A stretch of DNA of 54,621 bases, taken from IMG/VR virus record IMGVR_UViG_3300037455_000816, one strand, 5' to 3'. The notes beneath the pieces were generated by a model. It was not told the origin of the DNA. It saw only the letters and a list, made by a program, of their open reading frames with translations, and did no database searches. Of this stretch, positions 7,209 to 25,354 are shown one piece after another. Both the position numbers and the translations under genes were made by a program. Each line of letters opens with the position of its first letter. The stretch's first letter is position 1. Source of the DNA: a virus. Taxonomy: Duplodnaviria > Heunggongvirae > Uroviricota > Caudoviricetes.

Positions 7209-7216
7209 TACCTTTG
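7209..7216 (+). promoter_or_regulatory. Bacteroidota -7 promoter element upstream of array locus A
   Basis: TACCTTTG fits TAnnTTTG, 28 nt before scaffold S1; no clear -33 TTTG. Confidence 0.6.
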
Positions 7217-7244: not shown

Positions 7245-7313
7245 CGGGTCGGCTGTACGACCTTATGGTGAGGGTACGACCACTCACTAAGATGCTTAAA
7301 GACATCACGCAGC
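7245..7313 (+). ncRNA. guide-RNA-like scaffold S1 (69 nt)
   Basis: CGGGTCG-GCTGTA-CGACC / TGGTGAG..CTCACTA / GATG..CATC / ACGCAGC; homologous to five other copies with compensatory changes. Confidence 0.8.
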
Positions 7314-7420
7314 ATACGAGGCAGTATTGTAATTTTTACGGCTAAGATGCTGAAAGTATCATGCAGCCCCAAGAGGCTATGCTTAATATGTAAGCATCAT
7401 GCAGCCACAGGAGGCCATGC
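7314..7420 (+). CRISPR. degenerate mini-array A1 (short GATGCT/AGCATC-type repeats)
   Basis: 27-nt spacer, repeats 7341-7367 and 7376-7405 ending ATGCAGC, separated by 8-nt intervals CCCAAGAG and CACAGGAG. Confidence 0.5.
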
Positions 7421-7473
7421 TTTATTTATAGAAATACAAATCGGGATCATCCCGAATGAACATAAATACAATT

Positions 7474-7542
7474 CGGGCGGGCTATACCGCCTCATGTGGA
7501 GGGTATCACCACTCCATAAGCCTTGAAAAAGGCCTATACAGC
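7474..7542 (+). ncRNA. guide-RNA-like scaffold S2 (69 nt)
   Basis: GGCGG-GCTATA-CCGCC / TGTGGAG..CTCCATA / GCCTT-GAAA-AAGGC / TATACAGC; preceded by hairpin TCGGGATCATCCCGA. Confidence 0.8.
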
Positions 7543-7793
7543 TCACGACTGTAGAAACCATCTTCTTCTGGGCTGTTAATCACCTTAATTTGAAAGGGTC
7601 ATACAGCACACAAAGGTCGGCTTTATTTCAAAAGTGCGCTGTTAATGACCTTAATCTGAAAGGATCATACAGCCAAGAGCACTTGTGAAGTACGTTGATG
7701 AAAGCTGTTAATGACCTTTAGTTGGAAGGAACATACAGCACAAGGAGAAAATGGAGGAGCCGTCAATAACCTTTTTATAAAGGCATATACAGC
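7543..7793 (+). CRISPR. CRISPR-like array A2, 36-nt type VI-B-like repeats
   Basis: Repeats 7572-7607, 7638-7673, 7704-7739 (GCTGTTAATGACCTTAATCTGAAAGGATCATACAGC consensus) and degenerate 35-nt 7759-7793; spacers 29, 30, 30, 19 nt. Confidence 0.9.
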
Positions 7794-7877
7794 TCAATCG
7801 CAAGAAGTTGAAAATACATGATGTGAATAAAGACGGCTGTTGTATTCACCTCAAATTAAACCAATTAAATATACGTT

Positions 7878-8129
7878 ATGCCAGAAAAGAAAATTTTCTT
7901 GCCCGACGCAGAAACAGCCGGGAAACTCATAGATAATGCCTGGAAGGAGTTCAACGAACAGATGAAAAAGGCTGGAATGAACTTCGAGGGTACGCAGGTG
8001 TTTGAACTTCTTCACGACATCTTTGTCGCTGGTTACTCCTTCGGTCATAATGACTGCCTGACTATCATCCGCGACCAGCTGGAGATAGATAACTGGATGC
8101 AGTACACCAAGACACTACGGAAGAACTGA
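7878..8129 (+). CDS. hypothetical protein between array loci
   Basis: 83 aa, AT-rich UTR, followed 4 nt later by next ORF. Confidence 0.7.
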   Translation: MPEKKIFLPDAETAGKLIDNAWKEFNEQMKKAGMNFEGTQVFELLHDIFVAGYSFGHNDCLTIIRDQLEIDNWMQYTKTLRKN

Positions 8130-8133
8130 CCTC

Positions 8134-8577
8134 ATGGCACAAGACGATAGCAACATCAGAGGATGGGGAAGAATCCTTGCGAATCCTGAAAGCCAAGACA
8201 GGCTTATGAGTGCCATGAAGCTGGCCGACGATATAAAACACGATCCAGAACGAGTCAGAATCCCCGACGGTATAGATATCCGGCATATCTTCTATTTCTA
8301 CGTCAAGGACAAAGAAAAAAGAGGAATGAAGGGCTGGGTGAACGGACAGGAGGTGTTTGGCGTTCTTTCAAAGAATGAAACCGCCGCACTGTTGAATGGC
8401 TTTATCACCAAGGAACAGGCGTTCATGGCCAACAAAGGCATCCATAATAAGGTACATGAGATTGCAGACAGTCTGGCATCCAACCGCCTACAGGAAGCAA
8501 AGCTTCTACAAGAGAACTACGATAGGCTGGAGAAGGAATCACAAGAACCTTCAAAAACCAGTCGATTAAAAATATAG
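8134..8577 (+). CDS. hypothetical protein between array loci
   Basis: 147 aa; stop lies 8 nt before scaffold S3. Confidence 0.7.
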   Translation: MAQDDSNIRGWGRILANPESQDRLMSAMKLADDIKHDPERVRIPDGIDIRHIFYFYVKDKEKRGMKGWVNGQEVFGVLSKNETAALLNGFITKEQAFMANKGIHNKVHEIADSLASNRLQEAKLLQENYDRLEKESQEPSKTSRLKI

Positions 8578-8585
8578 AATATCTA

Positions 8586-8654
8586 CGGGCCAGCTGATTG
8601 GCCTCATGTGGAGGGATCATCCACTCCGCAAGATGCTTTGAAGCGTCATACAGC
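8586..8654 (+). ncRNA. guide-RNA-like scaffold S3 (69 nt)
   Basis: GGCCA-GCTGAT-TGGCC / TGTGGAG..CTCCGCA / GATGCT..AGCGTC / ATACAGC. Confidence 0.8.
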
Positions 8655-8750
8655 TACGGAGTATGAGGACGAAATCAAGACTCTGGTGTTAAAGCACCAA
8701 AAATGTAAGCATCACACAGCTGAAGAGCGAGAAGGCTTAACAATACAACT
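8655..8750 (+). CRISPR. degenerate mini-array B1
   Basis: 30-nt spacer, degenerate 36-nt repeat 8685-8720 (GGTGTTAAAG...TGTAAGCATCACACAGC), then a further ~30-nt spacer. Confidence 0.55.
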
Positions 8751-8817
8751 GGTGCATATGCGCCAATACAAAGAAAGAACAAATCGGGAAACTCCCGTAT
8801 AGTAATAAAACTAATGT

Positions 8818-8886
8818 CGGGCGGGCTGTACCGCCTTATGGTGAGGGCCACGCCACTCACTAAGCCTTACAAAAGGTCAATACAGC
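8818..8886 (+). ncRNA. guide-RNA-like scaffold S4 (69 nt)
   Basis: First 31 nt identical to S5 (23933 minus); CCTT-ACAA-AAGG stem; ends AATACAGC; preceded by hairpin TCGGGAAACTCCCG. Confidence 0.85.
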
Positions 8887-9009
8887 TCAAGAAAGGTTAA
8901 TGGTTCTGCTGTTAATGGCCTTCATTTGAAAGGAACATACAGCGGTCTTAGGGGTCAGCAAGTGCCGCGCGCAGCTGTTAATGACCTTAATGTGAAAGGA
9001 TTATACAGC
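8887..9009 (+). CRISPR. CRISPR-like array B2, 36-nt type VI-B-like repeats
   Basis: Repeats 8908-8943 and 8974-9009; spacers 21 and 30 nt. Confidence 0.88.
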
Positions 9010-23778: not shown

Positions 23779-23870
23779 ATCTAATGAAATTTAATTATTA
23801 ATCCTATATCGATGATTCACTATGTGAGTGATGTTTAGCTGTATGGAAGCAGTTATGCAGTTATGCAGCA

Positions 23871-23933
23871 GCTGTATGATTTGCACCTTGGCGAGTAGCC
23901 TCGCCCTCACCATAAGGCGGTACAGCCCGCCCG
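23871..23933 (-). ncRNA. guide-RNA-like scaffold S5 (63 nt), 9 nt after the dCas12f-like stop
   Basis: CGGGCGGGCTGTACCGCCTTATGGTGAGGGC...CTCGCCAAGGTGCAAATCATACAGC; followed 25 nt later by a second CATACAGC (23838-23845). Confidence 0.85.
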
Positions 23934-23942
23934 GTAAAAACA

Positions 23943-25247: not shown

Positions 25248-25354
25248 GCTGTATATCCCGTCCTGACCATAATCTGCTTTGCCAAACGGAAGAAGGCAAG
25301 GGCGGGACTCTGCGAGTGGATTCCCTCTCGCATCAAGGCCGAACAGCCGACCCG
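25248..25354 (-). ncRNA. extended scaffold S6 (107 nt) in the 5' leader of the dCas12f-like gene
   Basis: GGTCG-GCTGTT-CGGCC / TGCGAG..CTCGCA / long TCCCG..CTTGCC..GGCAAAG..CGGGA stem / TATACAGC; ends 48 nt before ATG; preceded by GCGGGAA..TTCCCGC hairpin. Confidence 0.8.

Follow-up and report, generated by a model that had tools for sequence, protein, structure and literature searches.

Two short arrays of 36-nt repeats stand in the window analysed here (the whole stretch of 54,621 nt, part of a mobile element with genes for an integrase, a ParA-like protein, a replication initiator and a primase). Their repeats look like those of type VI-B CRISPR systems, yet no Cas13 accompanies them. Which effector, then, do these arrays serve? 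We consider it likely that both mini-arrays provide guide RNAs for a nuclease-dead Cas12f (dCas12f) that the element itself encodes; the window contains no other gene of this type. This dCas12f is of the CRISPR-linked kind lacking a sigma factor that was already reported in 2026 (PMC13472631). The VI-B look is a general property of Cas12f/dCas12f-linked repeats in Bacteroidota and not the sign of a missing Cas13b; with the most likely user of the arrays named, the puzzle of the absent effector disappears.

Repeat search and reading of the sequence gave five full repeats, arranged in two blocks with a period of 66 nt (Table 1). The spacers measure 29, 30, 30, 22, 21 and 30 nt, and the format of 36-nt repeats with mostly 30-nt spacers given in the preliminary description of this DNA holds. 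No two of the five repeats are identical (mean pairwise score 0.88). A 5-bp terminal stem (GCUGU/ACAGC) and an inner CCUU/AAGG stem, the design that had been called VI-B-like, are predicted in every full copy, with folding energies of −8.6 to −10.8 kcal/mol (z −1.7 to −3.6). In the tail of array A, a degenerate copy at about 7759–7793 retains only the 3' hairpin and ATACAGC (11.2 bits with the Cas12f-type repeat model described below). Since the stretch 3' of R6 is conserved in sibling elements, we regard it as flank and not as a free spacer. Compared with Rfam, the array region matched neither CRISPR-DR nor any other family, even at E ≤ 10.

Table 1. Guide-RNA cassettes, repeats and associated genes in the window.
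Feature	Position	Strand	Remarks
Scaffold S1	7245–7313	+	Variant copy ending CACGCAGC; from repeat families and sequence
Short units after S1, 38 nt	7351–7426	+	Keep the 3' hairpin module only
Scaffold S2	7474–7542	+	Heads array A; three hairpins; 3' end ATACAGC; fold −30 kcal/mol, z −4.35
Guide behind S2, 29 nt	7543–7571	+	One change relative to siblings L137 and L151
Array A	7572–7739	+	R1 7572–7607, R2 7638–7673, R3 7704–7739; Cas12f-type repeat model 30.3–35.6 bits, VI-B model 13.0–18.9 bits
Array A spacers, 30 nt each	7608–7637, 7674–7703	+	
Tail of array A	7740–7823	+	22-nt spacer, degenerate repeat, trailing guide-like sequence
Two ORFs, 83 and 147 aa	7878–8577	+	Between guide cassettes; no family match
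Scaffold S3, guide and diverged repeat	8586–8720	+	ATACAGC end at 8654; 30-nt guide 8655–8684
Diverged repeat	8685–8720	+	18.8 bits, Cas12f-type repeat model
Scaffold S4	8818–8886	+	Heads array B; fold −28.6 kcal/mol, z −3.3
Array B	8887–9009	+	21-nt guide, R5 8908–8943, 30-nt spacer 8944–8973, R6 8974–9009; R5 and R6: Cas12f-type model 34.1 and 32.0 bits, VI-B model 26.3 and 12.4 bits
Scaffold S5 region	23838–23934	−	Begins 9 nt past the dcas12f stop codon; ATACAGC 23871–23877, 26-nt guide, second ATACAGC 23838–23844
Nuclease-dead Cas12f, 418 aa	23943–25199	−	Likely array user; sole such gene in the window
Scaffold-like copy S6	25248–25354	−	In the dcas12f leader; 3' end ATACAGC

The repeats are related to the 69-nt scaffolds. 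As had been noticed earlier, the last ~26 nt of the repeat correspond to the scaffold's 3' module (stem 3 plus ATACAGC), and the hairpin with ATACAGC forms the 3' end of all repeats and of scaffolds S2, S4, S5 and S6; GCTGT, with which the repeat begins, is found in the scaffold in the loop of stem 1. A working model could be built on this anatomy. Each cassette would be transcribed from the plus strand into an RNA that starts with the 69-nt scaffold and its guide, in effect a natural single-guide RNA, and the 36-nt repeats next in the cassette would be cut-down scaffolds, the 3' 26 nt copying stem 3 and AUACAGC and the 5' GCUGU providing in cis the strand able to pair with ACAGC, a strand located in the scaffold within the stem 1 loop. 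If the repeat is indeed a cut-down scaffold, its guide would be the spacer 3' of it, in a type V-like manner, and not the one 5' of it as in VI-B; only the order of scaffold and guide points to this position. Once processed and loaded, the array RNA would direct dCas12f to matching DNA, and the protein, having neither a RuvC site nor a sigma partner, might silence its target by blocking transcription or replication instead of cutting. The preliminary description had also considered that the scaffolds correspond to the long composite repeats of some VI-B arrays, in which an insert splits the 36-nt repeat into a 5' and a 3' piece (88 nt in a Cas13b array; PMC8209922). We reject this because the scaffold is the guide-RNA scaffold of dCas12f, although it does contain GCTGT in a loop and the 3' module of the repeat; in this element as in relatives it directly follows the dcas12f gene, and Cas13b arrays play no part.

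The best match of the 418-aa protein among solved structures is 9n9c, 'Nuclease-deactivated Cas12f' (E 4.5e-39). Aligned with a Cas12f-like protein of active size, it has Arg in place of the RuvC-I Asp and Val in place of the RuvC-II Glu, and it lacks the C-terminal ~56 residues. The linkage of such genes to such arrays is family-wide: in most of the 50 loci with genes for related proteins, arrays with a 66-nt period directly adjoin the gene, and a metagenome scan that started from the repeats found dcas12f beside such arrays in eight loci (L121, L122, L127, L150, L157, L165, L183 and L195). In close relatives from Prevotellaceae and Bacteroidales (L001, L004–L008 and L010) a scaffold is followed by two to four 36-nt repeats, most of which end in ATACAGC, and L004, L006, L008 and L010 also have the layout in which scaffold and repeat share their 3' end. 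A search of IMG/VR found neither a relative of the dCas12f protein nor a copy of the repeat pattern. Published dCas12f proteins use single-guide RNAs encoded downstream of dcas12f, and a cluster without sigma factors lies beside CRISPR arrays, with scaffolds like the array repeats at one locus (PMC13472631; 10.1101/2025.06.10.658880). Our locus resembles these sigma-independent loci (Hoffmann et al., Nature 2026, PMC13472631, Extended Data Fig. 1a,b, 3d) in the nuclease-dead, C-terminally truncated protein, the scaffold near the gene, the scaffold-like array repeats and the absence of an adjacent rpoE; repression was proposed as the role of these array-associated proteins. It differs in belonging to a mobile element, in arrays that are separated from the gene by 15 kb and run on the opposite strand, where relatives have them next to it, and in the four scaffold-headed cassettes placed around two ORFs without family match. 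In contrast to those of the Sphingobacteriia clade, the window repeats self-fold as a two-stem hairpin (MFE −9.3 versus −3.0 kcal/mol). Type V-F (Cas12f) arrays of Bacteroidota that adjoin genes for Cas12f-like proteins of 475–516 aa (L102–L108) provide a further comparison: their repeats align with ours over 36 nt without gaps, share the G.TGT start and the TTTGAA.GG core, and adjoin the guide with their 3' end; unlike the window repeats, they end in TCCAAC and mostly have no self-fold, and their effectors retain the RuvC residues. Canonical Cas12f works with a separate tracrRNA, as known from V-F1 systems.

A first alternative, which we think unlikely, keeps dCas12f as the effector and sees in the repeats the decaying relics of an ancestral active V-F array, with only the full scaffolds and their guides still at work. 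Such decay would fit repeat copies that all differ, two of them degenerate (7759–7793 and 8685–8720), the tiny arrays of the close clade (two to four repeats) and the exclusive use of single guides by the published dCas12f-sigmaE systems. Against it, both stems are kept in all five copies despite their differences, and the layout of scaffold plus repeats is maintained by relatives in many genomes. The siblings argue in the same direction: in elements that differ by 3–6% elsewhere, cassette A is preserved letter for letter save a few changes, and the cassette B spacer is a different one in each near-identical sibling. The differences among copies had earlier been taken to suggest that no Cas1–Cas2 homogenisation is active; the copies do differ, but near-identical siblings have different spacers in their second cassette, so that this conclusion is half right.

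How far does the resemblance to VI-B go? Like the repeats of Prevotella buccae (6DTD) and Bergeyella zoohelcum (6AAY), those of the window are 36 nt long, alternate with spacers of ~30 nt and have a terminal stem of 4–5 bp, an inner stem, a U-rich loop and GAAAGG, in a locus without cas1-cas2. The P. buccae Cas13b repeat that the preliminary description had cited proved to be, verbatim, the repeat of an array adjoining a Cas13b gene (L087). Compared with 11 bona fide VI-B repeats from arrays adjoining cas13b genes, the window repeats reach an identity of 0.58 (shuffles 0.31; z 5.8), and the best VI-B repeat found, from a metagenomic Cas13b array with GCTGT...ATACAGC repeat ends (L141), is identical at 24 of 36 positions. 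The likeness in size, ends, two-stem fold and TTTGAAAGG core is therefore real; its specificity is not, as the covariance models reveal. With a VI-B model made from repeats flanking cas13b, the window copies score 12.4–26.3 bits, below every member (31–47) and equal to dcas12f-linked repeats from elsewhere (16–26). With a Cas12f-type model made from 26 Cas12f/dCas12f-linked repeats, this element left out, the five window copies are the top five matches in the 54.6 kb and fall among the members (30.3–35.6 versus 29–42 bits). A leave-one-out position-weight comparison over all columns places them 5.6–13 bits toward the Cas12f-type class; over the interior columns 6–29 they are weakly nearer to it (−0.1 to +7.3 bits). 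In an earlier version of this comparison the two classes were told apart 33/33 and the window repeats came out as Cas12f-type by +11 to +20 bits; it was discounted because ~6 of these bits came from the ends, which the Cas13b array L141 shares. Both classes in Bacteroidota have one format (36 nt, ~30-nt spacers, G.TGT...TTTGAAAGG...ACA(A/G)C) and pick each other up with covariance models, so that a VI-B assignment of an orphan array needs more than its repeat sequence, which would likewise not settle who uses the present one; repeat look-ups should take this mutual detection into account. Of the four explanations offered before, the first, a type V-like effector that had captured VI-B repeats, was probably right about the effector. 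Capture from VI-B is unnecessary because the most similar repeats (0.67) belong to distant dCas12f relatives.

Cross-talk with a Cas13b of the host, which would mature the transcript and use spacer plus repeat as RNA-targeting guides, alone or beside dCas12f, appears to us very unlikely. Format, ends and two-stem fold agree with VI-B, down to the ends and 24 identical positions of L141; the VI-B model finds two of the window copies at E < 0.05 (26.3 and 18.9 bits); and recognition of the repeat by Cas13b is mainly structure-specific according to reviews (PMC8209922). Set against this are the bit scores, which no VI-B member shares and other dcas12f-linked repeats do, the scaffolds, for which Cas13b biology has no counterpart, and the distribution of the genes. 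A Cas13b profile search of the window returned nothing at E ≤ 10 (longest open frame 749 aa), in agreement with the absence of Cas13 reported earlier, and cas13b (NF038190) is lacking both nearby and in the five genomes that contain the closest relatives. The same search finds Cas13b in 13 of the 401 genomes of a family sample, and these do not overlap with the 10 genomes that have Cas12f-like proteins; no locus encodes both cas13b and dcas12f. In the window and these genomes, neither the use of the arrays by a host Cas13b nor their action as decoys, as suggested before, finds support.

We rate lower still a scheme of dual use, in which host Cas1–Cas2 would add spacers in trans to repeats of VI-B/II-C format, dCas12f reading repeat and downstream spacer for DNA binding and a host Cas13b the upstream spacer and repeat for RNA cleavage.

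Why the two repeat classes share a format is a separate matter. Filling in trans has been shown by experiment for VI-B only, by a II-C Cas1 in F. columnare (Hoikkala et al., mBio 2021, PMC8092290). The two cases resemble each other: adaptation genes are missing from the array loci, the repeats have a GTTGT end in common with II-C repeats from their phylum, and near-identical elements differ in spacer content. Three of the five host genomes of close relatives contain Cas1, and in two of these the II-C repeats measure 47 nt (GTTGT...ACAAC) instead of 36 nt with ATACAGC; Cas9 arrays ending in ATACAGC do occur (L175 and L156). The repeat ends might track the II-C system of the host, although the closest relatives' II-C arrays are of the 47-nt kind. 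On this mixed support, the shared repeat format probably reflects arrays that, without cas1-cas2, draw on one type of host integrase. Shared integrases would explain how mobile systems consisting of an effector only keep their guide sets current, and the differing spacers of near-identical siblings are an entry point to this question. 

Finally, that the repeats are RNA anti-CRISPR decoys, sequestering the host's Cas13b by imitation of its repeats, would suit a mobile element carrying units with a VI-B-like fold but is highly improbable: such decoys nearly copy the host repeat, and the best VI-B repeat found is identical at only 24 of 36 positions; the repeats come with their own effector and scaffolds; the same arrays also accompany dcas12f on chromosomal contigs of MAGs, up to 134 kb long; and unique spacers that vary among siblings are needless in a decoy.

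Targets of the guides were searched in plasmid and phage records, in the window, in the fetched loci and in 381 family and five further genomes, and none was found; an IMG/VR search with three guides also gave no match. A 19/19 match of spacer 7740–7758 within a large ORF of one genome (G001) is taken to be a chance match (E 0.02 per genome, with hundreds of genomes). Near the arrays, the complete Bacteroidetes −33/−7 promoter pattern was looked for and not found; reading of the sequence upstream of scaffold S1 shows a Bacteroidetes −7-like motif, TAccTTTG, at 7209–7216.

Two plus-strand mini-arrays lie within 7572-9009 of the window, each headed by a 69-nt three-hairpin guide-RNA scaffold that ends in ATACAGC. 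Every full repeat copy has a terminal stem of five pairs (GCUGU/ACAGC) and an inner CCUU/AAGG stem (-8.6 to -10.8 kcal/mol), and its last ~26 nt are a variant of stem 3 of the scaffold with ATACAGC. Spacers are 29, 30, 30, 22, 21 and 30 nt long. Given the repeats, folds and scaffolds as measured here, the preliminary description of 36-nt repeats with mostly 30-nt spacers, a two-stem fold and a scaffold-like 3' part was accurate; it also rightly stated that every copy differs, as no pair is identical and pairwise scores average 0.88. Behind scaffold S1, two to three 38-nt tandem units (7351-7426) hold only a short hairpin and ATGCAGC; they are ~11-21 nt apart, less than ordinary spacers would take up. 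A Bacteroidetes -7-like promoter motif, TAccTTTG (7209-7216), stands 29 nt before S1; the full -33/-7 pattern was not found near the arrays. Between the guide cassettes are two small ORFs of 83 and 147 aa (7878-8577), which have no family match and are kept in the sibling elements L137 and L151.

Repeats, scaffolds and effector gene in the window
Feature	Position	Strand	Remarks
Full 36-nt repeats (n=5)	starts 7572, 7638, 7704, 8908, 8974	+	66-nt period
Degenerate repeat copy	~7759-7793	+	only 3' hairpin and ATACAGC kept
Diverged repeat copy	8685-8720	+	
Scaffold S2 (heads cassette A)	end 7542	+	fold z-score -4.35; ATACAGC end
Scaffold S4 (heads cassette B)	end 8886	+	fold z-score -3.3; ATACAGC end
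Scaffold S5	starts 9 nt after dcas12f stop codon		ends ATACAGC
Scaffold S6	in dcas12f leader		ends ATACAGC
Cas12f-family protein, 418 aa	23943-25199	-	sole one encoded in the window

True VI-B repeats were collected from 401 genomes of the same GTDB family, screened for GTTG...CAAC arrays and then for Cas13b (NCBIfam NF038190), which 13 of them encode; the arrays obtained adjoin proteins with Cas13b scores of E 1e-163 to 1e-283. The PbuCas13b repeat named earlier as a likeness is real, and occurs letter for letter beside Cas13b at locus L087. All Cas12f-type and VI-B repeats, bar one 35-nt VI-B repeat, align without gaps in a common frame, G.TGT...TTTGAA.GG...ACA(A/G)C. The window copies have mean identity-like scores of 0.67 to the distant dCas12f clade, 0.60 to both the close clade and active-size Cas12f-like repeats, 0.58 to VI-B (shuffles 0.31, z 5.8) and 0.44 to Cas9-type 36-nt repeats. 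With a VI-B covariance model (R1; 12 repeats, two stems) the five window copies score 12.4-26.3 bits, dcas12f-linked repeats elsewhere 16-26 and the model's own members 31-47. The Cas12f-type model (R2; 26 repeats, this element and its siblings left out) gives the window copies 30.3-35.6 bits, its members 29-42 and true VI-B repeats 22-31.5; neither model detects Cas9-type repeats. Because each model scores the other class, Cas12f-type and VI-B repeats form one look-alike group. Within it the window repeats fall in the Cas12f-type class, and their VI-B likeness is exactly equal to that of their relatives: it is real against shuffles but not specific, being below member level in R1 and at member level in R2.

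Mean self-fold energies are about equal in the close dCas12f clade, the window and VI-B (-8.7, -9.3 and -10.0 kcal/mol), whereas the distant clade (-3.0) and active-size Cas12f-like repeats (-5.3) fold poorly. Since the latter two do not self-fold as well, the two-stem design is common specifically to the close dCas12f/window clade and VI-B. In the close clade the two-stem repeat mirrors the scaffold's 3' module and loop-to-tail pairing, which fits a role as a cut-down scaffold that would work without a separate helper RNA.

When interior columns are scored by themselves, the window repeats lean only weakly towards the Cas12f class (-0.1 to +7.3 bits); the repeat ends give part of the class separation, and a Cas13b array can have the same ends. 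The arrays are therefore assigned to dCas12f mainly by context and not by the sequence of their repeats. The best solved relative of the window protein is 9n9c, 'Nuclease-deactivated Cas12f' (E 4.5e-39). Aligned to an active-size Cas12f-like protein of the same bacterial family, it has Arg for the RuvC-I Asp and Val for the RuvC-II Glu, and lacks the last ~56 residues. Databases hold hundreds of homologues at ~60% identity. A scan with one genome per species gave 50 loci with relatives, and in most of them 66-nt-period arrays directly adjoin the gene. In close relatives (41-61% identity; MAGs of Prevotella, Prevotellaceae, Bacteroidales and Paludibacter), a scaffold trailed by 2-4 36-nt repeats lies after or before dcas12f; these repeats open with G.TGT and in most cases close with ATACAGC. 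Arrays are longer in the distant clade (Parapedobacter, Olivibacter and others; ~30-43% identity), where the repeat end is TTTGAAAGGTATATACAAC. A metagenome scan keyed solely on repeat ends found dcas12f adjoining such arrays in eight loci; it yielded the near-identical siblings L137 and L151 (94-97% identity over >7 kb) and the further relatives L139, L161, L172 and L185. The window arrays are thus most likely dCas12f guide arrays.

The element encodes an integrase, a ParA-like protein, a replication initiator and a primase, and is therefore mobile. In cassette A, spacers are the same in the window, L137 and L151, bar a few single-base changes; in cassette B the spacer behind S4 (window 8887-8973) differs in each of these and L139, so the arrays of this family are not frozen. 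Decay, which the divergent copies might suggest, is accordingly unlikely. Either spacer turnover or acquisition, or an exchange of cassettes, lies behind the cassette B difference; the mobile element itself lacks cas1-cas2. Among the five genomes that carry close relatives, three encode Cas1, and II-C arrays with 47-nt GTTGT...ACAAC repeats stand beside two of these genes; their mismatch in length with the 36-nt repeats is the one that Hoikkala et al. noted in most species for II-C against VI-B arrays (PMC8092290). Cas9 arrays with 36-nt ATACAGC-ending repeats do exist in metagenomes (L175, L156). In one host genome of a close relative, a Cas1-linked array of 36-nt Cas12a-style repeats lies beside a 1243-aa ORF (L238:6977-13493; G005:C3), and repeats of 37 nt occur at a second Cas1 locus (L237). 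As no guide had a protospacer in plasmid and phage records, 381+5 genomes, all fetched loci or, for three guides, IMG/VR, the arrays' biological role, DNA targeting and a TAM are putative and deduced from the protein family. One 19/19-nt match, of spacer 7740-7758 to G001:C2:118802-118820 (L230), is probably chance (E 0.02 per genome); the site, which has a G immediately 5' of it, lies within a >1330-aa ORF of the genome from which relative L001 comes.

Use of the arrays by Cas13b would suit their VI-B likeness, and at metagenome locus L141 a Cas13b (E 1.7e-245) has repeats with the GCTGT start and ATACAGC end; we nonetheless consider it very improbable. A profile of seven Cas13b proteins matches nothing in the window at E<=10, in agreement with the earlier claim that Cas13 is absent; no open frame exceeds that of a RecD-like helicase (749 aa). 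The five genomes that carry the closest relatives contain neither Cas13b nor GTTG...CAAC arrays, but they are mostly MAGs, in which absence is not proof. Among the 401 genomes (again mostly MAGs), the 13 with Cas13b and the 10 with a Cas12f-family match do not overlap, and the two genes occur together in none of the fetched loci. That the VI-B-like arrays are decoys is scarcely credible, with no Cas13b in the window or in the five genomes of the closest relatives. The preliminary observation, VI-B-like repeats with no Cas13b, is thus confirmed; its interpretation holds in part only, dCas12f being the likeliest user. Repeats of 36 nt with a G[CT]TGT start and ATACAGC end stand beside Cas13b (L141:8399-12162), Cas9 (L175:198-5696; L156:489-5150) and dcas12f, so these ends are common to three effector types. 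At L115:572-3943 (G208:C131) a 979-aa protein directly precedes a six-repeat array whose repeat is at member level in both covariance models (38 and 34.8 bits). Searches of this protein against NCBIfam, Pfam and PDB sequences gave nothing, and BLASTP gave only a weak 71-aa match to a Cas13b (E 4e-5); it could be an effector of an unknown kind or a highly diverged one.

A literature search requiring all topics jointly found no paper that states how V-F-type and VI-B repeats of Bacteroidota are related. The 2026 dCas12f papers describe single-guide RNAs whose genes lie downstream of dcas12f, a distinct cluster of dCas12f proteins without rpoE, near CRISPR arrays, for which gene repression is proposed, and one locus whose guide scaffolds resemble the array repeats (PMC13472631; 10.1101/2025.06.10.658880). 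The window arrays fit this rpoE-less, array-linked cluster, and a domain search found no sigma-factor domain in the ORFs flanking dcas12f. Unlike that cluster, the window system is on a mobile element, its arrays are distant from the gene, it has four scaffold-headed cassettes and its repeat is self-folding.
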